Positions 22,550 through 59,253 of a DNA stretch of 64,000 nt are shown here, piece by piece. Positions within the stretch are counted from its first letter, which is position 1. Each line of letters opens with the position of its first letter. The notes below the pieces were generated by a model. That model had not been told where the DNA came from, searched no databases, and saw nothing but the letters and a program-made list of their open reading frames with translations. The stretch is taken from positions 12,642 through 76,641 of the forward strand of contig JBEBBG010000015.1 in NCBI GenBank assembly GCA_041158505.1, read 5' to 3'. This DNA comes from Candidatus Parcubacteria bacterium (GTDB taxonomy: Bacteria; Patescibacteriota; Minisyncoccia; Phycocordibacterales; JAACPR01). The position numbers and the translations under genes are program-made.

Positions 22550-22705
22550 ATGTCTGTAACATACAAACCAAAGCGACGAAAGCGAGCAAAGACCCACGGG
22601 TTCTTGGTTCGCTCACGAACCCCAGGAGGAAAGCGAGTACTCGCTCGACGCCGACAAAAGGGGCGAGCAAAGCTCACCGTGTCTCGAAAACGAGCGTCAT
22701 AATAA
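22550..22705 (+). CDS. rpmH: 50S ribosomal protein L34 (below the ORF-track length cutoff)
   Basis: ATG at 22550; [50 protein letters not shown] (51 aa) is a textbook L34 sequence; TAA at 22703-22705. Confidence 0.85.
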
Positions 22706-22757: not shown

Positions 22758-23099
22758 ATGCTGAGAAAGAAAGACAGACTCACCACAGAATCTTTTACTG
22801 CTGTTATTGCATCAGGAAAAACATATAGGGTTCCCACGGGCTATCTTAAAGTTATTCCTGGGGATGTATCAGCTTTTGCAATCGCTGTACCTAAAAAGGT
22901 GGTAAAGTCGGCAGTTCGAAGACATCTCATAAAACGACGCGTTTTTAGTGCGTTGCGACCCATTGCTGGTCAGTTCCCTGTGGGACACTATGTGTTTTTT
23001 GTAACTTCAGAGAGTGCTGCTTTTTCGGTCGATGCTTTTACAGAGATGCTGACAGAACTTGCAAAAACGGTTGCCACAAGCCTCCAAAGTCGCCTATAA
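22758..23099 (+). CDS. rnpA: ribonuclease P protein component
   Basis: 113 aa basic protein (LRKKDRL...FAIAVPKKVVKSAVRRHLIKRRV) in the conserved rpmH-rnpA-yidC position. Confidence 0.8.
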   Translation: MLRKKDRLTTESFTAVIASGKTYRVPTGYLKVIPGDVSAFAIAVPKKVVKSAVRRHLIKRRVFSALRPIAGQFPVGHYVFFVTSESAAFSVDAFTEMLTELAKTVATSLQSRL

Positions 23100-23880: not shown

Positions 23881-25200
23881 CTACCTCGTGCCGCGCGCCT
23901 TGGTGATGTCGACACTCCAGAGTGTTAGATCCTTTTTATTTACAAAGAGAATAAACTCATCACGAGGGCTGACCGTGATTTTGGTGATGTCGAAGCTTTG
24001 TGGAACCTCTTCTTTGTTGATAAGGAGGGCTTCGTATGATTCGTCTTTCAAGTTGACCTTCCAAAGGTTGTCGGCAAACGTGCTTACCCCTTGGTACCAC
24101 GTTTCTGGGTACGCGACGCGCTCCGGTTGATCTGTTGCCCCACAAAAGACTACGTCGGCACTTGTTTGGCTAAAGGTACATTTTTCAGGAAGTGTTTTAA
24201 TACCGAGCCGCTTTGATTGTCCGTTCGTTATGTTGTATGCGTAGAGCTCCAAATCGTTGCTACGTGCAATTGAATACAGCATCCAGGTCTTTCCTGGGTT
24301 TGTGAGTGTTGTGAGCCCTGGTGTGTCTCCAAGGAGCTTCTGGAGGCTCTGGTTGGCACCAATGAGGTAGGCAAAGCCGTTTTCACGAGAATCTGCCTTT
24401 GTTGTGATGATACGGTCAGTGTTGTTTACCTGCTGCACAATCCACTGTGTAAAAGGAGATTCATGCAAAATACGCTTTGCTTGGTCTTTGAGGTCGGCCG
24501 CGATAATAGTGCTGCCCCCTGCACTGTTCTCAAGTACGTAGCTGATGTTTGTTGCCCCAATATCTGCAGACACAACGTTGCGTGGAAGGTATACCCCTTC
24601 AAGTGAGTAGCCGTCCGCAATAATTTGGAAGGTGTCTGGCGATGTCGTGCTCTTGCTTGTTACTTTACCAATGAGTGTTTCAACGGTTTCTTCATCTTCT
24701 GCAACATACTGGACGAGCGCGTGTGTTCCGTCTGGACTAAATTTTGTGTACGAGACCTTAGGGATGGTGGTGTTAGAAAGACGTGTCTGTGTTAATGAGT
24801 TTTCTCGGGCCTCGTAGAGGTGGCCGGTTGCTCGTTCAATGTATCGAAAGGTTGTGATGGTAAACGCCCGGCTTTCCTCAACACCCTCATCAGAGATGTA
24901 TGTTTCAGAAGATCCTGTTGGGCGTTCAAACGCTACCGCACCAGCTACAGGGACTTGCGATAGTTGTCGAACACGGGGAATGCTCGCTGTTCCTGGTTGC
25001 TGTGTTGTGCTGTTTGGAGTCAGCTCCCCTTCTGCGCCGATGCCATTATTAATATCTACTGGGAAAAAGGATTCACTCCGACCGCTGTCGGTATATGTGC
25101 TTTGTGGCGCATCACCCCGGAAGAAAAAGAGCCATAGTAAAAAACCAATAAAGGCAGCAACAATAACAAAGAGAGACCAACCTAAAATACGTTTTACCAT
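23881..25200 (-). CDS. membrane-anchored beta-propeller (TolB/PD40-like) protein; last gene of the T4SS-like operon
   Basis: N-terminal TM (WSLFVIVAAFIGFLLWLFFF), repeated FSPDGT / LYSIA-type beta-propeller strands. Confidence 0.45.
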   Translation of the reverse strand: MVKRILGWSLFVIVAAFIGFLLWLFFFRGDAPQSTYTDSGRSESFFPVDINNGIGAEGELTPNSTTQQPGTASIPRVRQLSQVPVAGAVAFERPTGSSETYISDEGVEESRAFTITTFRYIERATGHLYEARENSLTQTRLSNTTIPKVSYTKFSPDGTHALVQYVAEDEETVETLIGKVTSKSTTSPDTFQIIADGYSLEGVYLPRNVVSADIGATNISYVLENSAGGSTIIAADLKDQAKRILHESPFTQWIVQQVNNTDRIITTKADSRENGFAYLIGANQSLQKLLGDTPGLTTLTNPGKTWMLYSIARSNDLELYAYNITNGQSKRLGIKTLPEKCTFSQTSADVVFCGATDQPERVAYPETWYQGVSTFADNLWKVNLKDESYEALLINKEEVPQSFDITKITVSPRDEFILFVNKKDLTLWSVDITKARGTR

Positions 25201-25239
25201 ATGGAGTTATTATACCTTTAAAAAAAGTATGTGAGCGGA

Positions 25240-25953
25240 TTAACGAACAGGTCCGATTGGAATACTTCCAAATGGAAGGAGTTCAAGCTGCAGGTTGCCC
25301 GTCGCCCCGCTTGTAAGTTCGAGTTCTCTTCCAACGGCTTCTGAGATGAGGAGCTCGTCATCGGTGCTGCGGTGATCGATTTCTGCGACGACTGATCGCC
25401 CTGTGTTTTTATTTGTAATTCGAACAACCTGTGAGGCAAGGTAGCGATTAGCGATACCTGTATCTGCTATTTCTGGGAAGTTTGCAATACGTGCGCTCGT
25501 GCTGTCTGGGTAAGCGATAAAGTATTCTGCCGCTGGAATCCGGTCACGTACCAATTTGCCGCTTACAAGCCCGACTTCATCATACCCGTGCATTCCTCGG
25601 CTATCTCCTTGTGTGTATGCAACACGCTCCCCTGCTAGATTTGTTGCAAAGTAGTACTGGTTAGAGCCTTCTGTTGCTGCCAAGGTGAGGTCTCCTGTTG
25701 CCGCCGGGTTTTTAATCAAGGCGTACTCGGTTCCTCGCTCAAGTAGTGTCCTAATATCTGATGGGCCACCATAGTAACGAACGGTAATACCGCCAGCCAC
25801 CGTTGGTGTCTCTACAACTTCGCTAAATGCCTCACGTTGCTCCACAAAAGGCTCTGGGGCCGGCGTGGCGTCTCTTAGAAGCATATAGCCGATTGCAGCT
25901 AATCCACCAATGATGCCGGCAATACTTGCGATTATCCAGAAACGTTCATTCAT
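25240..25953 (-). CDS. RlpA-like double-psi beta-barrel protein, membrane anchored (putative lytic transglycosylase)
   Basis: N-terminal TM; VRITNKNTGRSVVAEIDHRS...DDELLISEAVGREL matches the RlpA DPBB core (VxVTNxxNGRSVVVRVNDRGP...IDLSxAA). Confidence 0.5.
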   Translation of the reverse strand: MNERFWIIASIAGIIGGLAAIGYMLLRDATPAPEPFVEQREAFSEVVETPTVAGGITVRYYGGPSDIRTLLERGTEYALIKNPAATGDLTLAATEGSNQYYFATNLAGERVAYTQGDSRGMHGYDEVGLVSGKLVRDRIPAAEYFIAYPDSTSARIANFPEIADTGIANRYLASQVVRITNKNTGRSVVAEIDHRSTDDELLISEAVGRELELTSGATGNLQLELLPFGSIPIGPVR

Positions 25954-25956
25954 ACG

Positions 25957-26394
25957 CTAAAAACCAAGGTCCACAATGAAATCTCCAGGACCTCCCGTTC
26001 CCAAGATGAGGTTGAGGACATAAATACAAACAAGGGCTATAGCGAGACCGCCAAGTGCTGCTGTAATTCTGTCTTTTCCTTCTGATTTACCAAACAACGA
26101 CTCGGTTCCCATATATTGAACTCCTCCAACTACAAGCATGATGACCGCAAGAATAATGGTAATACTGACAAGCCATTTGAAAAGCTGAGCCAGCATCTGT
26201 GGCAGCGAACCCCCAAAGTTGACACCGCTAATTGACTGGTACCCACCTCCCCCTTGAATGTTCTGTTGCTCAGGGCTGACAGGCGCTTCTTGTGCATGAA
26301 GCACCGCAACTCCTTGCACAAAGAGCAATGATGCAACACAAAACGCGGTCACTCCTTTTTTAAAATACGGTAACATTGCCTGTTTGAAGTTCAT
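25957..26394 (-). CDS. VirB2/TrbC-like pilin candidate
   Basis: 145 aa: about 33-aa signal peptide (cleavage after HAQ/EA), then two hydrophobic helices (LFKWLVSITIILAVIMLVVGGV and ITAALGGLAIALVCIYVLNLIL) separated by a short loop: T4SS pilin architecture. Confidence 0.45.
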   Translation of the reverse strand: MNFKQAMLPYFKKGVTAFCVASLLFVQGVAVLHAQEAPVSPEQQNIQGGGGYQSISGVNFGGSLPQMLAQLFKWLVSITIILAVIMLVVGGVQYMGTESLFGKSEGKDRITAALGGLAIALVCIYVLNLILGTGGPGDFIVDLGF

Positions 26395-27412
26395 TTTCTA
26401 GGGTTTCATCTCCAACAACATCTAGTGCAAAGTTAATCTTAGCATCTTGTAAGATGTTACTCAGGTGGTTGGTCCCCACATTAATTCTTGAAATACCACT
26501 TTTCGCCTTTCCTCTGTTTGTAAAGGTGAGCTTCGATCCAAGCGTTGGTAGATCAATTGGTTTTTCATTCTCTGTCCAGGAATACTCGATTGAGGCATCA
26601 TCACGGGATGATGCAGAAAAGAAGTAAGGAATAGCTACTAAACCAACCTCCTCCCTGTCAAAACGGAATCGTGAAGTAATTGCTCGTTCAAAAAGGTTTC
26701 CAAAAAGAGGGTTGCTCTCATACACGAGCACGGAAGTGTTTTTTGGTGTGACTTCGATTCTTTTCTGTGCTTGCACGCCCCCATTTACCGTCTCCACCAC
26801 TACAGTTACAAAGAAAGGGGTTGGAGCAAGGTTTCCAACAAAACTAATTGTATCTTTTCCAACACCTGATGCTTGCTGAAGTACTTGCCCATTTTTTTCC
26901 CATGTGTAGACAAGTTCTTTTGAAGAGATTTTTGTCCCACCCGTACGGATGTCTGGAATTGCCGCAATTGTCACAAGGGATTGTGGTGTGAAAAGAGACC
27001 TTCCTTTATAGAGCGGGGGTGTATAGGTGTCTGCTTCAACAAGCAAATCAACTGCCCCTGGAGTAAGGGTTATGCTGTCTTCATATGTTTTTCCATTTGA
27101 ACCAACAACACGAACTGAAACTGTTTGTGTTTGCCCAACTGCTGGTGTTGAAAAAATGAAAGTTCGAAGACCCAGCCCTGACGAGGTCTGACCGTCGCTC
27201 GTGTTCCAGGTTATGGTCGAGCGCCCAAGATCGATTGCGTAATTTTCTACTGTTGCTGTCACACTACTGTTTGCTGAGGGGATGCTTGGGCTTAGGGTGG
27301 TTGAAAGAGATCCGGTAAAAATATCTGGAGCAATTTGAGCTTTTGCGGCAGGTACGCCGAGTAAGAACAAAAACGCCAGTATGATCAAATAAAAAGCGGC
27401 GCGCTTAAACAT
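26360..27412 (-). CDS. secreted protein of unknown function (T4SS-like cluster)
   Basis: ATG at 27412 gives MFKRAAFYLIILAFLFLLGVPAAKA signal peptide; Ser/Thr-rich, beta-rich mature part. The track ORF is N-extended to 27448. Confidence 0.5.
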   Translation of the reverse strand: MFKRAAFYLIILAFLFLLGVPAAKAQIAPDIFTGSLSTTLSPSIPSANSSVTATVENYAIDLGRSTITWNTSDGQTSSGLGLRTFIFSTPAVGQTQTVSVRVVGSNGKTYEDSITLTPGAVDLLVEADTYTPPLYKGRSLFTPQSLVTIAAIPDIRTGGTKISSKELVYTWEKNGQVLQQASGVGKDTISFVGNLAPTPFFVTVVVETVNGGVQAQKRIEVTPKNTSVLVYESNPLFGNLFERAITSRFRFDREEVGLVAIPYFFSASSRDDASIEYSWTENEKPIDLPTLGSKLTFTNRGKAKSGISRINVGTNHLSNILQDAKINFALDVVGDETLENELQTGNVTVF

Positions 27413-27482
27413 ACATCCATTGTAGCAGAGATAAAAGCGTGGTCTCAACTAGTTTGCACGCAGGGTGTTCGTGTTTTCAAAA

Positions 27483-28049
27483 CTAGGCAGCTGTTCTGCT
27501 AGAAACGTACGCATCAATGTTTTGATTAAGTCTTGCAACTTTTTTCGGAACAAACCTTTGAACCTCATCCAAAATAAACCAGAAAGCCTTTACTACTTTT
27601 GTGTGGTGATAGTGAACAGAGAGAATCAAAAACGTGTTGGCGGTGATGACGTCGTTAAAAGGGATGGCATCACTGATTGCAAAAAGTACAAGCATGAGCA
27701 TTATTTTTCGAAGGATAATCTTCTGAGTTATCCTGCTTATCGTGCCGCTTTCTTTTCCAAAAAACCAGAAAAAATTTATAACCCAAGTTAGTATTTTAAA
27801 AATCCAGTAAACAACAACACCAACACCTGTTAACGAAAGAAGGGACGCCGCTATAGAGAGGGTGTCAAAAATTGCATTTATTAAAACAATAAGTGTTGGG
27901 AATGGTGGTAGCTTTGGACGGTTTTCTAGAAGTTGAATAGACGCATCCCGATCAATATCAGTCGCAAATGTTTCTTTAAAGCGCCCCTGAAACTCTCTAA
28001 GGTGACGTTGGCTAGAACGAGCGTGGCGCACTATATTTCCGTCAGGCAT
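27483..28049 (-). CDS. polytopic membrane protein (T4SS-like cluster)
   Basis: Three to four TM segments (TLIVLINAIFDTLSIAASLL, VVVYWIFKILTWVINFFWFF, IMLMLVLFAI). ATG at 28049 (MPDGNIV); the track start at 28064 is GTG. Confidence 0.45.
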   Translation of the reverse strand: MPDGNIVRHARSSQRHLREFQGRFKETFATDIDRDASIQLLENRPKLPPFPTLIVLINAIFDTLSIAASLLSLTGVGVVVYWIFKILTWVINFFWFFGKESGTISRITQKIILRKIMLMLVLFAISDAIPFNDVITANTFLILSVHYHHTKVVKAFWFILDEVQRFVPKKVARLNQNIDAYVSSRTAA

Positions 28050-28053
28050 ACCC

Positions 28054-29925
28054 CTATCGTACACCCTTAATCTCTAGTCCACCACGAAGAGCTTCTGGAT
28101 TTGCCATACCACCAGATGCGCGGAGTTCTTCTTTTGCACGCTTAATTTGCAGCACCTGTGATGGGTCTGAGGTGATGATCTGGTCTTCAGTGTATGAGGC
28201 GATAATTTTAATCGCAATGTGCTTGATGCCAGCAAAGAAGATTCCCTCTCCCACTCCAGACTCAAGGAGAAGATACTTCTCTTCCTCGGTGAGGTTAAAG
28301 GTTTGCTGAATCATATCGATTGCAGTCGGTGATTGTTTCAAGAGGAGCTGGATTGATGAGTTGGTGATGATCGGCATACCGTATGGCGATCGAAGGAAGT
28401 CCTCAACGTCTTGGGTAATGGTAGACATACCGAGATAGTATTTTCGTCCTCGTTTTGCAAGCCCAAAGAGGAACGACGCGGTGTCGTCTGATTTCATCAT
28501 CCACCACGCCTCATCGATTACGAGCAGTCGCTTTTTGAGCTCTTTGCGCACAGCATTCCAAATGAAGTGCGTCACAAGGTACATTGCAACCGGCTTAAGT
28601 TCATCTTCCATGTCTCGAAGCGAGAACACGATGAAGCGCTTGTTTACGTCGATGTTTGTTGGTTTGTTGATGAAACCTGCCCAGGTACCACGTGTGTACT
28701 TTGAAAGCTTTTGAGCCATACTCTCCCCTCCCTCCATGCCGGAGAGCACATACTCGAAGTCAGAAAGAAGTGGTGGTTCAATATTTGAGAAATCACTTTC
28801 GGGAGTAATGTCTTTAAGCGCGTACGTTTCAGAAATCGCGCGATCAACGAGCGCATCTTCCTCAGGGGTGAGTCCACCAAGCATGAGTCGGAAAAGACCA
28901 ACAAGGTTCACAATATTTGATCGGAGCACGTCACCTGCAGATTCATCTGGTGTTGGTGGTGCAAGGTCAAACGGGTTGATGTGGTGATCTGAAGTAAGAG
29001 AAATATTGAAGTAGCGCCCGCCTGTTGCTTCCGCAAGGAATTCATATTCACGTTCCGGGTCGATTACAATGACGTCGGTGTCGAGCATCAGGGTGCGCAA
29101 GATCTCGAGCTTTGATGCGTACGATTTACCAGAACCAGCCTTTGCAAAGGTAACTGAGTTGTAGTTTTCAAGACTGAATCGGTCAAAGAGGACGAGCGAG
29201 TTGTTGTGTCGGTTAATACCAAAGAGAATTCCCTTATCCGAGGTAAGGTCAAACGAGATGAATGGAAAGAGGCTCGAGAGTGGTGCTGAGTTGAGCTTTG
29301 AATGCACGCCGAGAAGATCTTGCCCTGTTGGAATAACGGTCTTAAATGCCTCCTCCTGCTGGAAGAGTGCAGGCTTTACGTACACCAACTTTGCTTCGAG
29401 AATCGACTTTACCTCAGAATCGAACTTGTCGAGCTCATCTTTGTTGTCCGCATAGATGCTGATATAGAGACCAACATCAAAGATTTTCTCTTGTGCCTGC
29501 TGGAGGTTGTCACGGAGAATTTCAAGGTCTTGGTATGCGGTGTCGAGTACAGGATCGCGTACAAGCCCCTTCTCTTCTCGGGTGTGAATCTGGCTCTGCA
29601 CTTCGGCTACTTTCTTTTTAAATTGTCGAAGGATGGTTGCGGTATCGATTGGGTGCACAAAAATCGATACATCAAATACTTTGTCGAGGTTGATGATTGG
29701 TGCAAACCACGAGTCTGAAAGGAAGCGTGGGTACGAGATAACGAAGAACGTGCGCACCATTTTGTCACCAAGGTTGATGTCACGAGGGCTCATCTTGAGC
29801 GCTGAAGGCGCAATCACGTCTTGTAGCTCAAGCACGCCCGCCTCGTAAATTTCTTGTGGAAGAAATGACGTAATGTCAGGTGTTTTTGGAGCTTCCTTTT
29901 TCTTTAGAAAATCAAAGAGGGCCAT
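28054..29925 (-). CDS. T4SS ATPase VirB4/TrbE/PrgJ family, ATPase portion
   Basis: VirB4 N-region RTFFVISYP...FVHPID; Walker A FAKAGSGKSYA; Walker B LLVIDEAWWM; C-terminal TrbE-type domain. Starts at an ATG one codon after the in-frame TAG that ends the upstream ORF. Confidence 0.8.
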   Translation of the reverse strand: MALFDFLKKKEAPKTPDITSFLPQEIYEAGVLELQDVIAPSALKMSPRDINLGDKMVRTFFVISYPRFLSDSWFAPIINLDKVFDVSIFVHPIDTATILRQFKKKVAEVQSQIHTREEKGLVRDPVLDTAYQDLEILRDNLQQAQEKIFDVGLYISIYADNKDELDKFDSEVKSILEAKLVYVKPALFQQEEAFKTVIPTGQDLLGVHSKLNSAPLSSLFPFISFDLTSDKGILFGINRHNNSLVLFDRFSLENYNSVTFAKAGSGKSYASKLEILRTLMLDTDVIVIDPEREYEFLAEATGGRYFNISLTSDHHINPFDLAPPTPDESAGDVLRSNIVNLVGLFRLMLGGLTPEEDALVDRAISETYALKDITPESDFSNIEPPLLSDFEYVLSGMEGGESMAQKLSKYTRGTWAGFINKPTNIDVNKRFIVFSLRDMEDELKPVAMYLVTHFIWNAVRKELKKRLLVIDEAWWMMKSDDTASFLFGLAKRGRKYYLGMSTITQDVEDFLRSPYGMPIITNSSIQLLLKQSPTAIDMIQQTFNLTEEEKYLLLESGVGEGIFFAGIKHIAIKIIASYTEDQIITSDPSQVLQIKRAKEELRASGGMANPEALRGGLEIKGVR

Positions 29926-29928
29926 ATG

Positions 29929-30570
29929 CTAATTGTGTGGTAATGGTTTCTCAACATCACCTGGATTAAAGAGTCGGTAAAAGATTTCAATCACCTCTTC
30001 GGTGCCAAGTTGCACTGCGCGAATACCGCTGCGGACGATTCCAGACCGCACAACGGCGATACGCTGTTCAAGCTGGCTGCGTGCTTCCTCAAAATCTTCA
30101 GTCTTCATGTTTGCGTCTTTTTTGCCACCAAACGGATTGCTTACCTTTTTGCCGCGAACATCAATCGTTGGTGGTGTGTACGGAACTGTAATGTAAAAGG
30201 TCTTGGTCATAATGTTGGTGCGCTCAGTAAACGCTTGGATGAATCCAATGTACTCTTTGATTTGCACGCGCATGAGGTCGTTAATTTGCTCTCGCTCGCG
30301 AGCTTCAAGCATTGCTACGTATGGACGAATGTCGAGACGTCTCGACTGGATGAAGATTTGAACCGAGAAATTGAGCGAGTTGAGAAACTGTTGGAATTGG
30401 AAAATGATTGCACTCTGCTCCTCTTCTGATTTGAGCGCAAAGTTGATTGAAGAGGTCATGAGGATTGCGCGCATTGAACCATCCTTGAGCACAAGAATAC
30501 CGTCACGCACTTCACGCACGGGGACAAAGTCCTGTGTTGTTTTTGAGTTTGCTGCTGCCATATCGTGCAT
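29929..30570 (-). CDS. VirB4-family N-terminal domain protein; same frame as the ATPase ORF, separated by a single TAG
   Basis: VPVREVRDGILVLKDGSMRAILMTSSINFALKSEEEQSAIIFQFQQFLNS matches the conserved N-terminus of Gram-positive VirB4-like ATPases; frame continuity with 28054..29925 checked by coordinates. Confidence 0.5.
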   Translation of the reverse strand: MHDMAAANSKTTQDFVPVREVRDGILVLKDGSMRAILMTSSINFALKSEEEQSAIIFQFQQFLNSLNFSVQIFIQSRRLDIRPYVAMLEAREREQINDLMRVQIKEYIGFIQAFTERTNIMTKTFYITVPYTPPTIDVRGKKVSNPFGGKKDANMKTEDFEEARSQLEQRIAVVRSGIVRSGIRAVQLGTEEVIEIFYRLFNPGDVEKPLPHN

Positions 30571-30605
30571 TCATTATACACGACTGTACGAAACGAAAAC
30601 GTGGG

Positions 30606-31043
30606 TTACTGACGTGTGCGCGGATCAACGTCCTGGAGTGTTTGCAACGTCTCGTGAATATCGAGTCCCCACGATAAATCTTTGAGCTTACTGTTTGTTA
30701 CTTTTGGCACCTCTTGCGTAACGTACTGAATGACTTCGGCCGCTTTCTTCTCAGGTGTTTTTTCCCGTTTTTTCCAGAGGTATAACTTTGGTGAAAAGAT
30801 GAAACGAAACGCTGTTTCGAGGACCACAACAAGCGGCCGATTGTTTACTTGGTAAAAGGCAAAGCCAAAAAAGAGGAGTACTACTGGTAAGCCAATGACA
30901 ATTGCTAGAACCTTGGGCATGGTAGTCCAAAAGATGAAGGCGAACGCCAACCCCGCAGCCGAGTACAGGAACTGTTTAAGGGTGAGTGGTCCAAAAATCT
31001 TATCTTCTACTTCAAGGAATTGTGGTACTTGGTATTTTGCCAT
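30606..31043 (-). CDS. PrgI-family (VirB3-like) small membrane protein
   Basis: MAKYQVPQFLEVEDKIFGPLTLKQFLYSAAG then two TM helices: the PrgI-family signature (VPxDLxxEDKIFGxLTLRQ) and the canonical position immediately upstream of VirB4. Confidence 0.6.
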   Translation of the reverse strand: MAKYQVPQFLEVEDKIFGPLTLKQFLYSAAGLAFAFIFWTTMPKVLAIVIGLPVVLLFFGFAFYQVNNRPLVVVLETAFRFIFSPKLYLWKKREKTPEKKAAEVIQYVTQEVPKVTNSKLKDLSWGLDIHETLQTLQDVDPRTRQ

Positions 31044-31055
31044 AGGGGTACGTAT

Positions 31056-31910
31056 TTAGGCGATTGGCTCTCGGTATGGGTCTGTTGAGCCGTATGTTCG
31101 AGTTGTTGGCGTGGCTGGTGATGCTTCACCACTAACTGTACTCTCTGATGTTTCAAGTTCTAGACGGTTCTTTGCGGCGGTAACTGGCTGACCAAGCTTT
31201 GCTGCAACAATTGGATCAAGGTGTTTTGGTACAAACTGCTTAACTGCGGCAAGAGGCGGCGCTGGTTGCGTTTTTACTATAGGAGCAGGGCTCATCTGGG
31301 GAGCGGTTTTTGGAGTTGTTGGTAGGGTGATTACTTTCTCGATATGTGCTGGTACGGCAGTGTGAGGAGCTGGTGTTCCCGCAAGGAGTATCGGTTTGCT
31401 CTGTGGAATTGGCTTACCCTGGAAGAGCGCAACCGGAGAAACATCTAACTTTTTTGTTGAATAGCGAGCGGTACTTCCCTTTGATGGCAAGGTGACCTCG
31501 TTGTCTTCTTTGACTGCGGCTGCAATATCATCATCAGCCTTTGTGAGCTCGTTTGAAACACGCTCAACATCGTCGATGGTGTCATGAGATTCTGTAATGC
31601 CAACTAGTTTTTCACGAATGTTTCCAAAAATGTCGCGCTCGATATCGGCCGCGATTGCTGCGGCTTGTTCATCTGATACCCGTGCACCCTCTTTGGCGTT
31701 CTCAACAAAGGCATCCGGATCCTCCATGCCAAGCATGGTGACAAAGATGAGGCTCTCAAGTGCTGCCCCTTGATCGATGTGTAGCTGGTACTTCTCGACG
31801 ATGTTTCGAACTTTCTCTTGCCAGTTTGAATTAAGCACAATATCCTGCACTACTGGCGGAAGTGTGTTGAACTGTTCTTTAATGAGGTTTTCTGTTTCTT
31901 GCGAGATCAT
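31056..31910 (-). CDS. hypothetical protein with Pro-rich C-terminal half (T4SS-like cluster)
   Basis: 284 aa, no TM; acidic helical N-domain, then a PxxP-rich spacer. Confidence 0.45.
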   Translation of the reverse strand: MISQETENLIKEQFNTLPPVVQDIVLNSNWQEKVRNIVEKYQLHIDQGAALESLIFVTMLGMEDPDAFVENAKEGARVSDEQAAAIAADIERDIFGNIREKLVGITESHDTIDDVERVSNELTKADDDIAAAVKEDNEVTLPSKGSTARYSTKKLDVSPVALFQGKPIPQSKPILLAGTPAPHTAVPAHIEKVITLPTTPKTAPQMSPAPIVKTQPAPPLAAVKQFVPKHLDPIVAAKLGQPVTAAKNRLELETSESTVSGEASPATPTTRTYGSTDPYREPIA

Positions 31911-31913
31911 AGG

Positions 31914-33980
31914 CTATTCTTCTTTTTTATCACCCTTCGCGGCTTTAAGTGCTTTTATGATGTCGTATTTAACATCACGTTCTGCTTTAGCGAGTTCCTT
32001 TGCAATCGTTTTACCAGCAGCTGTTCGAGCAGGCTGCACCCATTTTAACTTACCAGCACCGCTTCGATTAAGCTGATCCCTATAGGTTTCAATGTAAACA
32101 TTCTTACTCTTATTGTATTTCTCTTTTGCTTCTCGAACGTCTTTCTTGGCAGTAGCGATTGATGCTTTTGAAGCATTAGTATCAATGAGGGTTTGGAGAG
32201 TTGCTTCCTTTGCATCAAGGTCTGCTTTATTTGGCTTAACAATATCATTACTGTCTGATACTTGCCCGATTGCTTCTGCTGCAAAGTTTGTAATTTTTTC
32301 TCGATTACTCTTAATGCTCGATGCATATCCTCCCTTACCCCCTGCAGCTCCAAATGCTTTATCCCCTACACCGGTTGCACTTGCGACTCCGGTAAATGTT
32401 TTTGAATTTCGAGCATCAAATGAGGCGCTGCCAATTCCTCGAGTTGTTTGAAGAGCAAATGCACCAATACGAGATTTTGCAGCCCACTCTTTAAATCCAT
32501 CTTTATCGGCAGCCCAGTTTGCAACGCGTCCAGGGAATTGTCTTCCAGCAAAAGCTGCGGTTCCAATAGCTGCACCACCAACTTTTGATGTAATGTTGCC
32601 GCTAAGTTTTGCAAGCGCTTTGTTTCCCATTGAGTGCATTTGTTTTGCTGCATAGAGGGCTCCAAGAAAGAGGCCAATAACGATACTGTATCGAACTAAA
32701 GGACTTGCTGCTGATGCAACCATTTTTACTATTGTTGATTGGACGCCCGCACTTGCCGCCGAAAAACCAACCTGAATACCAGAGGGGCTTGAAGTTTTTA
32801 CTATATCGAGTATTCCCTCTCCTCCGCTTCCTCCCATAAGCTTAAAGGCGATGAGTAGAAATAGTAGAAAAACAGGCAATGAAAAAGCATTTCCTATGAG
32901 TGAATCCCACCACTCCTGCGACATTTTTTTTGTCATTGGAAAGGCTTTTCCTACAAAACCAATTGGAGACAGAATAAGTAGAAAAACAATGATGAGGGTT
33001 CTCGCAATCAACATGAAAGCCCCAATAAACATCACAATCGCAAGTATGATGACGACCGCAATGGTCATTACAACACCAACACTTACCTGTATGAGTTGAT
33101 CAGTCGCACCGCTGTAGGTACTTTCATTGTTGCCAACTAATCCTGCACTATCCTTGCTTATTTTTAAGGCGTCTGTCTTTTCTAGTATAAAAGAACTTAC
33201 ACTTCTATCTCCAAGAACATTTTCAATGCTCTTCATGACAGAAAGAGCAAATTGGTTTGAGACGTCAACGATGACAGCCGCAAAAAAGAAGCTAAAGTTT
33301 ACGAGTAGGGCGGCAATAATGACATTTTTGAGAGCCTTTTTTGCTTCGCCGCTCTCTGTTTGTAAAATAAGGTTAATAGCGACGTAGAGTAAGATAAAGA
33401 CAAAACCAATGTTTACTAAGTCTCTAAAGATTTTCCATGCTTCATCTACAGACGCTCGAACGTTGCCACCCTCAGCAACCATAGAACTTAGACCGTAGGT
33501 ACTGATATTGATTGCTGTGTCGAGAAAAAAACCAGCAATGTAGAGTGTTAGTGATGCAACCCAGGTAATTGCAACTCCTATAGCACTAATTCCTGTCGTA
33601 AGACCTTTTAAAACAGTGGCAACTGTTTTCTCTAAACCAGATTTTTTAACTGTTTCAACAGCCGCTGCCCCGTCGTTAAATGCGTTTACCGGGTTTAGAC
33701 CTCGACCAAGTGCGTTAAAGAAGCCTTGGGCGCCCTCTTGCCCACTAATGGCCTTATTGTAGGACGCATTTTTGTCTAAACCGTTTAAACGAGATTGTAT
33801 GTAGTCGTCAACTAGTGCGCTGCGCAAGCTTGGCGGAATATTTGCTTCTCCAAAAATTTGCTGGGCTTCTTGTGCGTAGTTTTGATTTTGGGCATTTGCC
33901 GTGCTCGGTGCGTTAACAAAAAAAAGTCCAAGTAATACAGTACACAAAAAAATATGTTGTAAAACTCGACGCGCTCTCAT
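31914..33980 (-). CDS. large polytopic membrane protein, VirB6/TrbL/PrgH-like candidate
   Basis: 688 aa: signal peptide, periplasmic N-domain, at least six TM helices in the central region, Lys-rich cytoplasmic tail. Assignment is by architecture and context, not sequence motif. Confidence 0.45.
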   Translation of the reverse strand: MRARRVLQHIFLCTVLLGLFFVNAPSTANAQNQNYAQEAQQIFGEANIPPSLRSALVDDYIQSRLNGLDKNASYNKAISGQEGAQGFFNALGRGLNPVNAFNDGAAAVETVKKSGLEKTVATVLKGLTTGISAIGVAITWVASLTLYIAGFFLDTAINISTYGLSSMVAEGGNVRASVDEAWKIFRDLVNIGFVFILLYVAINLILQTESGEAKKALKNVIIAALLVNFSFFFAAVIVDVSNQFALSVMKSIENVLGDRSVSSFILEKTDALKISKDSAGLVGNNESTYSGATDQLIQVSVGVVMTIAVVIILAIVMFIGAFMLIARTLIIVFLLILSPIGFVGKAFPMTKKMSQEWWDSLIGNAFSLPVFLLFLLIAFKLMGGSGGEGILDIVKTSSPSGIQVGFSAASAGVQSTIVKMVASAASPLVRYSIVIGLFLGALYAAKQMHSMGNKALAKLSGNITSKVGGAAIGTAAFAGRQFPGRVANWAADKDGFKEWAAKSRIGAFALQTTRGIGSASFDARNSKTFTGVASATGVGDKAFGAAGGKGGYASSIKSNREKITNFAAEAIGQVSDSNDIVKPNKADLDAKEATLQTLIDTNASKASIATAKKDVREAKEKYNKSKNVYIETYRDQLNRSGAGKLKWVQPARTAAGKTIAKELAKAERDVKYDIIKALKAAKGDKKEE

Positions 33981-34041
33981 TACATTCTAGTATAGCAGTA
34001 GAAGATGTATTGACACACCCTATCTGTGAATACATCTTCTC

Positions 34042-35577
34042 CTATGTTCTGTCCCCTAGTATGCTAGATTGCTTTGAAGAATTAGGAAGAAGCTTTGACG
34101 GCGGCTTTGTTAGTTGTTCTTGAAGAGCATCCAAAAGCTCCTCACCCTTCTCGTCGATATTTACGAGGCGTTGCTCTGCTAATCCTATTCGGTTTTCTGA
34201 AACCATTTTGATAAAGCTGCCCGGAATCTCAACGTCCCCGGTGTCTTGATCTTTTTTGCTCAAATATCCGTCGTTCATCTCGTACTCAGCTAGTTGCAGG
34301 TTAATACTGTTTGCTTGAATAGTTTCAATTTCTGCTTGTGCAGATAAGAAGCGGAGTAAATCACTGTTGACTGGATTAAGCCGAACAGCCAGTGTGTCCC
34401 AAGGATTTTTGCTCTCTTGCTCCTGTTGCTTTTGCTGTTCATGAATAGGTACACCATATTCGCTGGCCATGAGATTTTCTACGACGGTGTCACCTTGGCT
34501 GCCTTGTTGAGATTTTTTATATTCATCAATAAAAGACTCGAAATGCATTTGGGATAGATCACTGAGTGCCTGAGGGAGATTTTGAACAAATGCAGGGTTA
34601 CCACCAAAAGCTGTGGTGATGTAATTCCCTGAGCTCTCCACAACCGCGGCGGCCATCGCATCAGCAACACAGTTATCTGCAGCGTCGTATGATTTACTAC
34701 TTCCTCCTGGTTCCCCCGCGTCTTTACGCACAAGTTCCCACACGTACGCGTTAATGGTGAGGGTGTCGACGGGGACAGCATATTCCCCTGTTGCTTGAGA
34801 TGTGTTGCTTGATAAGCCACTTCCTTCCCCTCCTCCAATACCACTGGTGGTTTCTTTGTTACACTCAGTTGTTGCTTCTGTAAGGCTTGTGGGTTTGCCG
34901 TCGCCATCCGCATCACCGGTTGCACGAATAATGTCGCCACCCTGCTCCGGCTTCTCTGGTTCGTTTATAGGAACTTCATTTGGTTCAAATTCCTGAGATT
35001 GACCAGCGTTTCCAAGAGGGCTGCCTCCCGAATTTCCTCCAAGTAAATTCTGGACTGCCTGCGGTACACCCCCCTGTCCTCCTTGCTGTCCTCCGCCAAG
35101 CAGGTTCCCTAACGGGTTATTCCCTCCTCCGGGTAGTTGTGGCAATTGTGGCAACTGCGGCGTACTTCCTCCTTGGTTACCAAGGTTAGGAAGATTCACA
35201 TCTGCTTTTACATCTACTTCACAGGTTGCTTCTGCGCGCTCCCCGTTTGAAACAACGATAACGGTTGCCTTTTTTGTGCCGTAGCTACCGTAGCTGGTAG
35301 TGACCTGGGGCTTATCAACTGTTGTAATATTTACGCCACGCCACCGATACGCAATTTTACTTTCTGTACCTCGAACAGTTGCTCGCCAGATTACTGGCTC
35401 ATCACGTCCAACCTCTGCTTTTGAGGGAGCACAGGTTACTTTAAGCGTCGTTGCTTGAGCGTACCCAAGGTGTGGCAACAGCTGCACAACAAGTAGACCA
35501 CCGAGAATGGTAACAACTAACCCGCTTAAAACGAGCGGCTTGTATAGGATTTTTGTTGTTTTTAGAAATCGTTCCAT
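34042..35577 (-). CDS. membrane-anchored protein with Gly/Gln/Pro-rich low-complexity linker (T4SS-like cluster)
   Basis: N-terminal TM, PQLPQLPQLPGGGNNPLGNLLGGGQQGGQGG repeat tract, globular C-terminal domain. Confidence 0.45.
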   Translation of the reverse strand: MERFLKTTKILYKPLVLSGLVVTILGGLLVVQLLPHLGYAQATTLKVTCAPSKAEVGRDEPVIWRATVRGTESKIAYRWRGVNITTVDKPQVTTSYGSYGTKKATVIVVSNGERAEATCEVDVKADVNLPNLGNQGGSTPQLPQLPQLPGGGNNPLGNLLGGGQQGGQGGVPQAVQNLLGGNSGGSPLGNAGQSQEFEPNEVPINEPEKPEQGGDIIRATGDADGDGKPTSLTEATTECNKETTSGIGGGEGSGLSSNTSQATGEYAVPVDTLTINAYVWELVRKDAGEPGGSSKSYDAADNCVADAMAAAVVESSGNYITTAFGGNPAFVQNLPQALSDLSQMHFESFIDEYKKSQQGSQGDTVVENLMASEYGVPIHEQQKQQEQESKNPWDTLAVRLNPVNSDLLRFLSAQAEIETIQANSINLQLAEYEMNDGYLSKKDQDTGDVEIPGSFIKMVSENRIGLAEQRLVNIDEKGEELLDALQEQLTKPPSKLLPNSSKQSSILGDRT

Positions 35578-36527
35578 ACGTTTCCAAGTTCGTTACTATC
35601 AAAAAGTATACCATTCGATTTGAAGTATAGAGCGAGAGATTTCAGGTGTTCACGTTGTGTGGTTGGAAGCGCGTCGTAGTTTTGTTGTGCAAGGAGGCTG
35701 TAAACAGGATCGTTGCCTGTAAGGAGGAGCTTTGGAAGGTATACAGAGGCGCGGTATAAGTTATTAGTAAAATCAAGATGTGCCGCTACTGCTCCGTCTG
35801 GTACGGGCATCATTGAAAGCTCTTCGGCAAAGCTTTGGTAGTAAGCTTTAAGTGTGTTGACGTAGTCCTCGGGGGTGGTGTTTTTTGAAACCGAAGCAAG
35901 AGCAATTGTGTAACGAGTGTAGGTTCCAGCAAACGCGTTGCCATACTGGCGAACCTTTTCTGTATCGGCGTCACTAACTGTTTGGAGCTCAAAAACAGAG
36001 TATTTGTCAGGAATACTCACCTCTTCGCGGGCCTCCGCCGCAATCTGAGCCGTAAGAGCCGGAATTGTGTCATCTGTCATTTTTCCAGACTGCTTTAAAA
36101 GCAAGTAGTTTGAAATGAGCTTTGAGCTAACGATTTCAGAGAGGCTGCCGGGATTATAAAACAGAGAAGGTGTTGAGCTGCTTGTTGCAAACAGCATGTC
36201 GTCTGGTCCTGGGGTGAGCGGATCTCTGCCGCCGCGTGCTTCTGTCCCATCGAGCGCACCATCGCCGTCAGTGTCGGGGTTATTGCTGTCTGTGCCGCGC
36301 ACGGTTTCCTCCCAATCAAAGAGCCCATCATTGTCGGCGTCTGGGGCAACAAGGGTGTTGTTTGGAAAGATAGTTTCAGCTGTAAGCTCTACTGCTGGTG
36401 TCTCTGGTGCTGATGCTCGTTTTTCCGCGATGGCGTTTTTAATTTGATCAACAGCAATAATCCCTAGGGTAATCACGGCAACGGTTCCAACAATCATGAT
36501 TCGATTTTGATTCGCGCTTCGTGCCAT
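35562..36527 (-). CDS. membrane-anchored protein with thrombospondin-type-3-like Ca-binding Asp repeats; first gene of the T4SS-like operon
   Basis: N-terminal TM; DADNDGLFDWEETVRGTDSNNPDTDGDGALDGTE fits DxDxDGxxDxxE calcium-binding repeats. ATG at 36527. Confidence 0.5.
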   Translation of the reverse strand: MARSANQNRIMIVGTVAVITLGIIAVDQIKNAIAEKRASAPETPAVELTAETIFPNNTLVAPDADNDGLFDWEETVRGTDSNNPDTDGDGALDGTEARGGRDPLTPGPDDMLFATSSSTPSLFYNPGSLSEIVSSKLISNYLLLKQSGKMTDDTIPALTAQIAAEAREEVSIPDKYSVFELQTVSDADTEKVRQYGNAFAGTYTRYTIALASVSKNTTPEDYVNTLKAYYQSFAEELSMMPVPDGAVAAHLDFTNNLYRASVYLPKLLLTGNDPVYSLLAQQNYDALPTTQREHLKSLALYFKSNGILFDSNELGNVWNDF

Positions 36528-36534
36528 ACGTCAC

Positions 36535-36566
36535 CACAGTATACCAAACGTGCGTGGTATACTGTG
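36535..36566. promoter_or_regulatory. divergent promoter with 11-bp inverted repeat carrying two opposed TATACT -10 hexamers
   Basis: cacagtatacc (36535-36545) and ggtatactgtg (36556-36566) around a 10-bp spacer; the -10 hexamers lie 4-8 bp from the ATGs at 36527 (minus) and 36571 (plus), implying near-leaderless divergent transcripts. Confidence 0.45.
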
Positions 36567-36570
36567 CAGA

Positions 36571-37020
36571 ATGATAAAACATGTTGCACAGATTAGTGTT
36601 GGATGTTGCCTTCTCTTTATACTCGCTGTGTCTGGAGTCCCTTTTACAAAGGTTTCGGCTCAGTCAACGGGTAGTACTCCTGTGATTGCACGAGGCTCGA
36701 CGCATATTGGTGATCCATTTGGTGGTCTCATTCAAAAGAAAAAGCCTTGCACGTGCTCATTTAATGAAATGCTTTACGTTAATGATACGGTGACCAAGCA
36801 ACAGCTTCGTATCTTAAACACTCCTGGTATTTCGCGTCCGTATGCGCACTACGTAACCCAAGAGCGAAAGCAGATTCTGGGTACATACACGCCCGGGGCA
36901 GGTATTTGTTTGCAAATTTCTGCGTCTGGCTGTGAGCCTGATCGTGAGGGTTGGCACGGTGAAATCAATTCAGGACCAGGTTTTGGTGTCAGTATGATGC
37001 CAGGAGGCTCTCCTTTCTAG
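36571..37020 (+). CDS. small secreted Cys-containing protein, divergent from the T4SS-like operon
   Basis: ATG at 36571 gives MIKHVAQISVGCCLLFILAVSGVPFTKVSA signal peptide; the mature part of about 120 aa has 4 Cys. Confidence 0.45.
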   Translation: MIKHVAQISVGCCLLFILAVSGVPFTKVSAQSTGSTPVIARGSTHIGDPFGGLIQKKKPCTCSFNEMLYVNDTVTKQQLRILNTPGISRPYAHYVTQERKQILGTYTPGAGICLQISASGCEPDREGWHGEINSGPGFGVSMMPGGSPF

Positions 37021-59246: not shown

Positions 59247-59253
59247 CTACAAT

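Follow-up and report, generated by a model that had tools for sequence, protein, structure and literature searches.

A conserved twelve-gene T4SS-like operon beside dnaA in a Candidatus Parcubacteria genome

Quinonero-Coronel et al. (2025, Microb Genom; PMC12102498) describe a Patescibacteria clade of MPF_FATA-derived T4SSs comprising TrsD, PrgI, VirB6 and VirB2-like pilins, without relaxase. The VirB4 clade of these bacteria is nested in MPF_FATA, with TrsD, PrgI, VirB6 and VirB2 encoded near virB4, and the T4SS neighbours in Paceibacteria are dnaA, dnaN, ksgA, rnpA and rpmH (PMC12102498). The Saccharibacteria version of the system is essential for epibiotic growth, according to Wang et al. 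(2023, Cell; PMC10633639). Both the T4SS and its pilins were found to be essential in Southlakia epibionticum, where a coupling protein or relaxase was not recognised (PMC10633639). The system itself, its missing relaxase and its position at the dnaA side have already been published in 2023-2025 (PMC10633639; PMC12102498; PMC12857230). The present analysis makes some small additions: a VirB4 more conserved than DnaA, a DPYRE tail on one of the operon proteins (g04), fusions between T4SS pilins and distant relatives of a DPBB-type protein (g11), and triple Ig-like repeats in a secreted protein (g09).

The window analyzed is a stretch of 64,000 nucleotides of contig JBEBBG010000015.1. It harbours twelve ORFs on the minus strand between 23881 and 36527 (g01 to g12, g01 being the first gene of the operon), with junctions from g01 to g12 of -16, 61, 3, 12, 35, 3, -11, 34, -35, 3 and 39 nt. 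A first-pass annotation of this DNA had indeed reported twelve genes on one strand spaced by 65 nt or less. It also let the operon stretch end at 37020 and placed the cluster ~4 kb from dnaA; however, 37020 is where a plus-strand ORF, the thirteenth, ends, and dnaA was measured to lie 1.4 kb beyond the end of the last operon gene. This thirteenth ORF (orf36550, 36550-37020), divergent from g01 and outside the twelve, encodes a small secreted Gly-rich protein with a signal-like TM segment at residues 12-30 and no match in Pfam. In 28 of 80 loci a homologue lies immediately upstream of g01 on the other strand, and orf36550 is possibly an operon-associated gene. These 80 loci, here and below, are the best 80 VirB4 loci, all from Patescibacteria/Paceibacteria MAGs. 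The proteins g03, g11 and g12 are 100% identical to RL150_593, RL150_585 and RL150_584 of a 'Candidatus Parcubacteria bacterium' MAG. The source MAG belongs to the class Paceibacteria. Nine of the twelve operon products carry a signal peptide or a TM anchor or are polytopic, in keeping with an envelope machine.

The ATPase of this machine is g07 (28054-29925, minus strand), which carries the middle and C-terminal P-loop domains of VirB4. It matches the VirB4-like CD1110 family of NCBIfam (NF045971) over model positions 185-732 of 752 with 364.7 bits, against a curated cut-off of 325, and Pfam P-loop_TraG at 1.5e-24, with further matches to AAA_10 and DUF87. Its Walker A (GxGKS) and Walker B (DEAW) motifs are invariant among 34 sequences, and its identity to VirB4 of 80 other species (the best 80) amounts to 76-91%. 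Median pairwise identity is 79% for VirB4 compared to 60% for DnaA, 51% for UvrD and 49% for DnaN, a contrast with DnaA that is somewhat inflated because the loci were selected for VirB4 similarity. The sequence comparison suggests strong purifying selection on VirB4, as strong as on core replication genes. The N-terminal part of VirB4 is encoded separately by g06 (29929-30570, minus strand), a TrsD-like free-standing domain that matches the NCBIfam models of CD1110 VirB4 (positions 2-120, 4.9e-9), TrsD/TraD (1.7e-7) and VirB4_CagE (positions 6-172, 2.1e-7). It was found as a separate ORF in 78 of the 80 loci, usually 1-6 nt upstream of virB4, and fused to VirB4 in none. The small membrane protein g05 (30606-31043, minus strand; 78 of 80 loci) belongs to the PrgI/VirB3 family, scoring 41.3 bits (2.3e-10) against Pfam PrgI with a gathering score of 27.

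Furthermore, g03 (31914-33980, minus strand) is an extended polytopic membrane protein of the VirB6/TrbL family, recognised by transitive homology and fold, with a TM core at about residues 120-450 and a hydrophilic helical C-terminal tail of ~230 amino acids. The sole pilin gene of the window is g10 (25957-26394, minus strand), whose VirB2-like product combines a signal peptide with two hydrophobic helices and exceeds the gathering score of Pfam T4SS_pilin PF18895 (1e-6; 29.1 versus 26.6 bits); 67 of 80 loci have a pilin. The assignments as VirB4, VirB4 N-domain ORF, PrgI/VirB3, VirB6 and VirB2-like pilin that had been proposed from the sequence were thus all borne out. The best plasmid matches of VirB4 are all from Bacillota or Actinomycetota, at 27-35% identity, and are annotated as CD1110 family. 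Very probably the operon descends from monoderm conjugation machinery (MPF_FATA, CD1110/CTn2-like) by loss of the DNA-processing half, relaxase and adjacent coupling protein, and by gain of a VirB2-like pilin.

The VirB4, PrgI and VirB6 core and its gene order also agree with conjugative CD1110-type modules, and the window contains one tyrosine recombinase gene, as would be expected if the operon were part of an ICE or integrated plasmid with its relaxase and coupling protein beyond the window. However, nearly all of ~46 full-length loci from other species retain the order uvrD-ksgA-[g01..g12]-yidC-dnaA-dnaN, so the operon is inherited vertically as a core locus and is not a mobile element. 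The same site, between ksgA and yidC-dnaA, is occupied in dozens of Paceibacteria species, with a divergence that tracks the core genes. A compositional island is not apparent (GC 46.0% for the operon, 47.9% for the window), and no flanking repeats or tRNA were found at the operon borders. Neither a relaxase nor a T4CP was detected in the window, ~7 kb of left flank and ~4 kb of right flank, the scope within which a coupling protein is said to be missing here. The absence of a VirD4-type coupling ATPase and relaxase that had been noted for the window thus extends over ~11 kb of additional flank. Contrary to the first-pass annotation, which saw no integrase anywhere in the window, a gene of the Phage_integrase family is present at 51108-52046. 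It is Xer-like, with a SAM_1 N-domain, and is located 14.6 kb from the operon amid housekeeping genes; it corrects the earlier statement in detail but leaves the argument for a chromosomal, non-conjugative apparatus unaffected. Moreover, a nearby relaxase was reported for only 15 of 2,474 virB4 genes in PMC12102498. A conjugative element is consequently regarded as highly improbable and close to refuted.

Just upstream of PrgI, invariably so in the 68 of 80 loci that have it, lies g04 (31056-31910, minus strand), coding for a cytoplasmic protein devoid of TM segments, with a conserved helical N-domain of ~100 amino acids, a variable Pro-rich linker and a C-terminal D-P-Y-R-E motif; Pfam and the PDB gave no match. 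The residues D277, P278, Y279, R280 and E281 show no or almost no variation and end 2-4 residues from the C-terminus. In the six reading frames of the window DPYRE is found a single time, and in 59 of 60 loci it stands at the C-terminus; the tail is probably a tethered docking peptide or recognition signal. Directly upstream of VirB6, g02 (34042-35577, minus strand) encodes an N-terminally anchored protein (TM segment 15-33) with a G/Q-rich low-complexity run and a conserved Cys-containing C-terminal domain. Its family is found between g01 and VirB6 in 58 of 80 loci, and the window protein has no match in Pfam, NCBIfam or the PDB. An identity of g02 as VirB5/TrbJ was tested and is unsupported. 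The gene g08 (27483-28064, minus strand) overlaps the end of virB4 and encodes a small polytopic protein of ~3 TM segments with no family match. Its sequence is divergent, and a profile search recovered it in 38 of 80 loci, but most loci have in the same position a small ORF with 2-4 TM segments.

Several products have features of surface proteins. The bitopic membrane protein g01 (35562-36527, minus strand) has a single N-terminal TM segment and Asp-rich TSP3-type repeats (about residues 59-106), and its ~200 C-terminal amino acids make up a domain without a recognised fold; an orthologue is found in 56 of 80 loci, invariably as first operon gene. It matches Pfam TSP3_bac (8.9e-5) and the NCBIfam CglD/MtsD repeat regions, and its family profile (A6) hits lanmodulin, calmodulin and, at 4.6e-8, the Ca-binding part of the Bap biofilm protein (7c7u); these matches bear out its earlier description as a Ca-repeat protein. 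The secreted or anchored g09 (26360-27448, minus strand; 73 of 80 loci), which probably starts at the ATG at 27412, has an N-terminal signal/TM segment followed by three homologous Ig-like beta-sandwich repeats of ~100 amino acids. These match one another in hhalign with 95%, 83% and 96% probability; profile matches to known Ig-like domains, those of an antigen receptor and of T4 Hoc (0.0034), are weak. The last gene, g12 (23881-25200, minus strand; 64 of 80 loci by tblastn), encodes a protein with an N-terminal TM anchor, a disordered linker and an extracytoplasmic beta-propeller. Its AF2 model (pLDDT 85.7) shows a helix at 2-27, disorder at 32-71 and an all-beta region at 77-431, and Foldseek returned more than 1000 propeller matches at E <=0.001, the best being an oligogalacturonate lyase (2.9e-10); Pfam gave no match above threshold. 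With TolB at ranks 5, 6, 12 and 17, the proposed TolB-like propeller holds as a generic beta-propeller fold but not for TolB in particular.

The membrane-anchored g11 (25240-25953, minus strand) had been described as an RlpA-like DPBB protein. Direct matches in Pfam or the PDB are absent and hhalign gives only 36%, but remote homology is indicated by bona fide DPBB_1 proteins (P0228, P0229) among the 22 matches of a profile search of 1.84 billion proteins. Two other matches, P0223 and P0230, are fusions of T4SS_pilin with a g11-like part carrying the DRGP...LDVS motif. With 16 close homologues only, and limited within the 80 loci to two (L001 and L002), g11 is a lineage-specific insertion; its divergent RlpA-type domain makes it a candidate peptidoglycan-remodelling factor.

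From these parts a mechanism can be proposed. A hexameric VirB4 motor, made of two polypeptides (the TrsD-like N-domain and the ATPase), would dock at the membrane via PrgI/VirB3 and VirB6, an assembly modelled on the R388 and pKM101 structures for proteins whose homology is established here; a VirB8-like component was not identified in the locus. VirB2-like pilin subunits may then be pulled out of the membrane by VirB4 and VirB6 and assembled into a short pilus, or a conduit, that crosses the monoderm wall, with peptidoglycan opened locally by the DPBB protein (in this lineage) and/or an M23-LysM peptidase encoded near the operon. By their topology, g01, g02, g09 and g12 could form the extracellular, host-contacting part. 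The roles of g01, g02, g04, g08, g09 and g12 are guesses read from topology and fold. The machine would serve the host-dependent lifestyle, delivering effectors to or importing molecules from the host rather than transferring plasmids, a step for which conservation is seen here and essentiality in the Saccharibacteria homologue only.

It could also be argued that VirB4 merely powers a VirB2 filament tethering the cell to its host, without substrate translocation. The pilin gene fits this, since monoderm conjugation systems lack a pilin (PMC12102498), as do the adhesin-like Ca-binding repeats, Ig-like repeats and propeller and the lack of an adjacent T4CP. Type IV pili, however, already serve adhesion and motility in Patescibacteria (PMC10633639), a PilB gene is present in the window, and an extremely conserved ATPase and a retained VirB6 are as much expected of a translocon as of an assembly motor. 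Adhesion as the only function is thus quite unlikely, and assembly and translocation are compatible with each other. DNA transport as such is compatible with the window data, because most Patescibacteria genomes encode homologues of VirD4-like T4CPs, though far away from virB4 (PMC12102498). A competence-type system like H. pylori ComB or archaeal Ced, importing host DNA or nucleotides that these bacteria cannot synthesise, might likewise do without a relaxase and adjacent T4CP, as ComB does. VirB4 partially matches the NCBIfam model of CedB (3.8e-9), comM lies 4.5 kb upstream, the window encodes a PilB-type ATPase, the T4SS has been named as a candidate route of nucleotide acquisition (PMC11665869), and co-location of T4SS with comF, recG and radA is reported for the class ABY1 (PMC12102498). 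The CedB match, on the other hand, covers a generic P-loop region only (residues 440-510) and remains far under the cut-off, and components specific for ComB or Ced were not found. DNA uptake is considered doubtful; it would be a variant of the preferred reading, a host-directed machine of conjugative descent, in direction and cargo, and not another machine.

Compared to ComB and Ced, the operon is likewise T4SS-derived, relaxase-free and serving the cell's own physiology, but specific homologues are limited to the VirB4 P-loop. It differs from the MPF_T VirB/D4 systems of diderms (R388 Trw, Agrobacterium VirB) in lacking the VirB7/9/10 outer-membrane core, VirB11, VirB8 and a recognisable VirB5. 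The pGO1 Trs system also has a separate small ORF for the VirB4 N-terminus beside virB4; however, g06 scores 31 bits against a TrsD family cut-off of 200, and the remaining pGO1 set, including relaxase and T4CP, is absent here. The monoderm architecture without VirB7/9/10 is shared with the MPF_FATA CTn2/CD1110 systems (and with pCF10 Prg/Pcf), but these conjugative systems have a VirD4-type T4CP directly upstream and a relaxase, lack a pilin and reside on mobile elements, none of which applies here. The order on C. botulinum pCDC3875, VirD4-x-VirB6-PrgI-x-VirB4-x-hydrolase, is that of the operon minus VirD4, including the small ORF between VirB4 and the wall hydrolase, although VirB4 of the conjugative systems is unsplit and full-length (797 amino acids in pCDC3875) and VirB4 here is split. 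No mention of the g12 propeller, the g01 Ca-repeat protein or the DPYRE-tailed g04 was found in the available sections of PMC12102498 and PMC10633639. As described in the latter, Southlakia epibionticum SEML1_0004-0019 has a six-pilin array instead of a single pilin, an NTF2/VirB8-like protein not found here, and lysozyme and M15/M23 proteins instead of the DPBB protein. Both loci have VirB6 ... PrgI-TrsD-VirB4 in this order (SEML1_0013 ... 0010-0009-0008 in Southlakia), and in both, genes for exported Ig-like proteins and for products of wall hydrolase type lie downstream of virB4 (PMC10633639). With the T4SS of the Patescibacteria clade the operon shares its chromosomal position adjoining dnaA/dnaN, ksgA, rnpA and rpmH without adjacent relaxase or T4CP, as well as VirB4, the free-standing TrsD-like ORF, PrgI/VirB3, VirB6 and the PF18895 pilin (PMC12102498; PMC10633639).

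The twelve genes of the operon (g01 to g12) were found on the minus strand of the window, running from 36527 down to 23881. Their successive junctions measure -16, 61, 3, 12, 35, 3, -11, 34, -35, 3 and 39 nt, and thus stay within the 65 nt that the first-pass annotation had allowed for gaps and overlaps. The same annotation let the cluster end at 37020, a position that was found to belong to a thirteenth ORF, which lies on the plus strand (36550-37020) and is divergent from the first operon gene. Nine of the twelve operon products carry a signal peptide, a membrane anchor or several TM segments, and three are cytoplasmic. The GC content of the operon (46.0 %) is not an outlier compared to that of the window (47.9 %). 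The operon has a Paceibacteria-type context, with dnaN (19707-20807), dnaA (21078-22481), rpmH (22550-22702), rnpA (22758-23099), yidC (23112-23870) and ksgA (37032-37817) as neighbours. Counts in a promoter and terminator consensus scan of the region 22.4-40.1 kb equalled those in shuffled sequence, and Rfam and tRNA scans yielded only four tRNAs, none of them at the operon borders. The divergent ORF, here called orf36550, is located 22 nt from g01 and encodes a Gly-rich protein of 156 aa with a signal peptide, for which no domain match was obtained. In 28 of 80 related loci a homologue of this ORF occupies the equivalent position, again on the strand opposite to g01. On the plus strand, 3.5 kb upstream of the operon, a gene (40002-41066) encodes an M23 peptidase carrying two LysM domains; roughly one in three of the related loci have such a gene beside uvrD. 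The survey by Quinonero-Coronel et al. (2025; PMC12102498) includes M23/LysM proteins in the VirB1-like hydrolases that accompany virB4 in Paceibacteria.

The 270-nt dnaN-dnaA spacer harbours five clustered matches to the DnaA box (TTATCCACA, at most one mismatch) at 20811-21072, and the cumulative GC skew is lowest at 18-20 kb. The spacer is the probable oriC, and the operon would begin ~3 kb from it. As the operon extends 3-16 kb to the right of the probable oriC on the minus strand, its transcription would be head-on to the replication fork, like that of dnaA. Two further DnaA-box sequences, exact and inverted, were found at 55877-55901, flanking a gene on the minus strand (53557-55938) for a 793-aa protein whose only domain match is a C-terminal PG_binding_1 (peptidoglycan-binding) domain. 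Elsewhere the window encodes a PilB/GspE-type T2SSE ATPase with an MshEN domain, a type IV pilus motor (11090-12934, plus strand), and a ComM/Mg-chelatase-like competence protein (41085-42659, minus strand), consistent with a pilus- and competence-rich CPR gene set. The mechanical ORF 59044-60126 (plus strand) of the MYG1 family overlaps tRNA-Pro (59174-59247) with its first 68 codons. Its true start lies downstream, because the JGI gene call in near-identical contigs has 290 aa and the Pfam match starts at residue 72.

The core of the secretion machine was identified at the level of sequence families. The product of 28054-29925 (g07) matches P-loop_TraG, AAA_10 and DUF87 in Pfam, and the NCBIfam model 'VirB4-like conjugal transfer ATPase, CD1110 family' with 364.7 bits (cut-off 325), covering only positions 185-732 of the 752 of the model. 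The preceding ORF (g06, 29929-30570) aligns to positions 2-120 of the same CD1110 model (4.9e-9), and also matches TrsD/TraD (1.7e-7) and VirB4_CagE positions 6-172 in NCBIfam; a direct sequence search of g06 against solved structures returned noise only. Since g06 and g07 cover separate parts of one model, VirB4 is encoded here by two ORFs, one for the N-domain and one for the ATPase, as the first-pass annotation had proposed. This split is not a sequencing artefact, because the two ORFs are separate in 78 of the 80 related loci, never fused and mostly 1-6 nt apart. Both Walker motifs of VirB4, A (GxGKS) and B (DEAW), are invariant. The product of 30606-31043 (g05) was identified as PrgI (Pfam, 2.3e-10) and that of 25957-26394 (g10) as a T4SS_pilin, PF18895 (Pfam, 1e-6), both above the gathering score. 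The 688-aa polytopic protein g03 (31914-33980) gave no direct Pfam match. However, three of its homologues pass the TrbL/VirB6 gathering score, the protein itself matches a Mycoplasma ICE conjugal-transfer family (NCBIfam, 1.3e-7), and the best Foldseek match of its AF2 model (pLDDT 72.6, TM core above 85) is TrwI/VirB6 of R388 (prob 0.99). These data agree with the earlier VirB6-like call and identify g03 as an 'extended' VirB6 with a helical C-terminal tail of ~230 aa. Homology shows a VirB3-VirB4-VirB6 inner-membrane module with an intact ATPase site, accompanied by a VirB2-type pilin; the TrsD-like ORF, PrgI/VirB3, VirB6 and the VirB2-like pilin are all encoded within six genes of virB4.

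No VirD4/T4CP or relaxase was detected by Pfam scan among all ORFs of at least 150 aa across the 64-kb window, as noted at first pass, and gene calls in contigs of near-identical strains revealed no conjugation genes in ~7 kb of left and ~4 kb of right flank. A mobile island just outside the window is thereby rejected for these ~11 kb, where genes for an ABC transporter, S20, a protease and an aminotransferase were found instead. The statement that the window lacks an integrase was incorrect, as a Xer-like tyrosine recombinase (Phage_integrase with a SAM_1 N-domain) is encoded at 51108-52046 (plus strand); this gene lies amid housekeeping genes and is not linked to the operon. The position next to oriC, which is conserved across species, and the absence of a GC anomaly and of a bordering tRNA or integrase speak against a mobile element. 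The products taken for VirB4 and PrgI both score above their cut-offs and neither a coupling protein nor a relaxase adjoins them on a mobile island; it is therefore very unlikely that the operon is a mobile element.

Three operon proteins are 100 % identical to RL150_584, RL150_585 and RL150_593 of a 'Candidatus Parcubacteria bacterium' MAG. A VirB4 scan with one genome per GTDB species identified at least 542 relatives. The best 80, which were analysed further, are all from MAGs of Patescibacteria (Taylor-, Kaiser-, Zambryski-, Campbell-, Nomurabacteria and others) and show 76-91 % identity. Both results place the genome in Patescibacteria/CPR. The order uvrD-ksgA-[g01 ... g12]-yidC (opposite strand)-dnaA-dnaN is kept in nearly all of the ~46 fully flanked loci. 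Iterative profiles recovered the accessory genes at conserved positions in 73 (g09), 68 (g04), 58 (g02), 56 (g01) and 38 (g08) of the 80 loci. When 34 genomes were compared all against all, the median identity was 79 % for VirB4, compared to 60 % for DnaA, 60 % for the TrsD-like protein, 51 % for UvrD, 49 % for PrgI, KsgA and DnaN, and 44 % for YidC. In these loci, selected by VirB4 similarity, VirB4 evolves slower than DnaA, DnaN, UvrD, KsgA and YidC of the same genomes. The machine is under very strong constraint, the contrast with the core genes being somewhat inflated because the loci were chosen by VirB4.

The accessory proteins are less uniform. The g01 protein (35562-36527) bears Ca-binding TSP3-type repeats, and its family profile matches the Bap Ca-binding region (4.6e-8) as well as lanmodulin and calmodulin, in line with the Ca-repeat assignment made at first. 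The g09 protein (26360-27448) consists of three homologous repeats of ~100 residues each (hhalign 95 %, 83 % and 96 %) with weak Ig-like matches, and g08 is a small polytopic protein whose position is kept, its sequence barely so. No recognisable domains were found in g02 and g04 with Pfam, NCBIfam and PDB, profile searches included. The g02 gene (34042-35577) is located directly upstream of the VirB6 gene. VirB5-type structures are searchable, since TraC and TrwJ are present in the PDB. A VirB5/TrbJ identity for g02 was hinted at solely by single family members (DUF4141, 1.3e-5; TrbJ, 0.017); its profile found no PDB sequence and hhalign against TrbJ of pTiC58 gave 0.15 % probability, and this identity was rejected for now.

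For the g12 protein (23881-25200), a TM helix followed by a disordered linker and a beta-propeller is predicted with high confidence (AF2 pLDDT 85.7). The description 'TolB-like' is right only at the level of the fold, because TolB is among the fold matches together with hundreds of unrelated propellers, many of them equal or better, and no PD40 or TolB match above the Pfam threshold was found. TolB was taken as an N-terminal alpha/beta domain followed by a six-bladed PD40 propeller, a periplasmic partner of Pal/TolA. Only the propeller fold is shared by g12, whose N-terminus is an anchor with a linker, and g12 was rejected as TolB. To our knowledge, monoderms have no Tol-Pal system.

The first-pass annotation had described g11 (25240-25953) as an RlpA-like DPBB hydrolase. 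Direct searches gave no Pfam or PDB match, solved structures returning noise only, and hhalign reached a probability of only 36 %. The family is tiny, with 16 close homologues and, by profile search, 22 matches among 1.84 billion representatives. In this library, however, the profile reaches P0228 and P0229 (7.5e-7 and 6.6e-6), two distant relatives that are true DPBB_1 proteins by Pfam (1e-43 and 1e-40) and that align to g11 residues ~150-233. These matches lend remote support to a DPBB domain in g11. Two further relatives, P0223 and P0230 from other metagenomes, have the T4SS_pilin PF18895 fused to a g11-like DPBB-type domain with DRGP...LDVS, where g11 has a nearly invariant D193-H-R-S. Such fusions suggest a functional link between the pilin and a wall-remodelling-type domain encoded by the adjacent gene, g11. 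The g11 gene is lineage-specific, occurring in only two of the 80 loci (L001 and L002). Long pilin genes in other loci were considered as carriers of a g11-like C-terminal domain; this was rejected, as hmmsearch with the g11 profile matched only the same two loci.

The g04 family (31056-31910, minus strand) is cytoplasmic and always encoded directly upstream of PrgI. Its members combine a conserved N-domain with a Pro-rich linker of freely varying length and a C-terminal DPYRE. In 59 of 60 loci the tail D-P-Y-R-E-(P)-x-x is invariant, with the motif located 2-4 residues before the C-terminus, and the motif occurs once only in the six-frame translation of the window. The g04 profile has no matches in Pfam and PDB, and a literature search for the DPYRE motif gave nothing relevant and no description. 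The tail resembles a docking peptide on a tether, or a recognition/secretion signal.

The operon is the system reported by Quinonero-Coronel et al. (2025; PMC12102498). That survey detected VirB4 in 2,417 of 3,035 Patescibacteria genomes and placed most of it in a single clade within MPF_FATA, with TrsD as the most abundant associated component and PrgI/VirB3, VirB6 and VirB2-like pilins near virB4. It describes relaxases as almost absent and T4CP homologues as common, usually far from virB4, and gives dnaA, dnaN, rnpA, ksgA and rpmH as typical neighbours in Paceibacteria and Microgenomatia. In agreement with this clade, no relaxase was found near virB4 and no T4CP adjacent to it in the 64 kb and flanks studied here. 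In Southlakia epibionticum, Wang et al. (2023; PMC10633639) report that SEML1_0004-0019 is essential for epibiotic growth, by Tn-seq, and that this locus adjoins dnaA-dnaN-recF. Its order is VirB6, NTF2-like, large protein, PrgI, TrsD-like ORF and VirB4, followed by a peptidase/lysozyme and Ig-like exported proteins, in addition to six pilins; a recognisable coupling protein and relaxase are noted there as lacking. The initial reading as a chromosomal, non-conjugative T4SS was right, and already in the literature. The operon is real and was correctly read; it is an ordinary representative of a system that has been published, and its genome is among the more than two thousand that carry the Patescibacteria T4SS. 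The interest of this system lies in its being the only T4SS known as essential for its owner and in its monoderm-conjugation ancestry, despite which pilins are present, as in print since 2023-2025. The present locus adds a clean case from Paceibacteria that combines one pilin with a fully syntenic core of eleven genes and, among VirB4-selected loci, an ATPase that is slower-evolving than DnaA. Minor leads that seem new are the DPYRE-tailed g04, the pilin-DPBB fusions and orf36550. Together with the anchored propeller, g04 and the fusions offer experimental handles that could aid the study of substrate recognition without an adjacent coupling protein.

By analogy with solved T4SS structures, a VirB4 hexamer made from two polypeptides would dock on PrgI and VirB6, and would drive pilin extraction and polymerisation into a conduit through the wall. 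Peptidoglycan may be opened by the DPBB protein and/or the M23-LysM peptidase, and the outer part of the machine, in contact with the host, may consist of the anchored Ca-repeat, Ig-like and propeller proteins. Possible roles discussed for the system are effector delivery, an uptake conduit and nucleotide acquisition (PMC12857230 (2025 review); PMC11665869 (2024 perspective)). We consider it highly probable that the operon encodes a T4SS for host interaction and not for conjugation; within this function, it may serve effector export, import of host molecules or a pure pilus function. A more elaborate hypothesis, which we regard as improbable, is that the Paceibacteria version is a fixed eleven-gene set, half of it undescribed, in which g04 would act as the system's own adaptor in place of VirD4, its DPYRE on the Pro-rich tether docking onto the split VirB4/TrsD. 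Alternatively, g04 would be a conserved secreted substrate and DPYRE its signal. The same hypothesis would make the propeller, triple Ig-like and Ca-repeat proteins a wall-spanning, host-contacting module without counterpart in other T4SSs.

A tblastn search of VirB4 against 72,556 plasmids gave best matches that are all monoderm and CD1110-annotated, with 27-35 % identity, from Streptomyces, Pontibacillus, Clostridium, Enterococcus and Bacillus. Such values, at most 35 % for plasmid VirB4s as opposed to 76-91 % for those of 80 Paceibacteria species, and the score above the CD1110 cut-off are consistent with a place of this VirB4 in the monophyletic Patescibacteria clade inside MPF_FATA. C. 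botulinum plasmid pCDC3875 carries VirD4(CD1115)-x-VirB6/TrbL-PrgI-x-VirB4(full length)-x-SLT hydrolase, and the window keeps this same order with VirB6-g04-PrgI-TrsD-VirB4-g08. The window locus departs from pCDC3875 in that it lacks VirD4, has a split VirB4 and an additional pilin, and differs in the downstream set. The MPF_FATA-type VirB4, PrgI and the VirB6-like partner are shared with conjugative MPF_FATA T4SSs, whereas the VirD4/TcpA-type coupling protein and relaxase are absent from the window and its ~11 kb of flank. Conjugative MPF_FATA systems, in turn, have no VirB2-type pilin and make contact by surface adhesins, while the operon described here encodes a PF18895 pilin.
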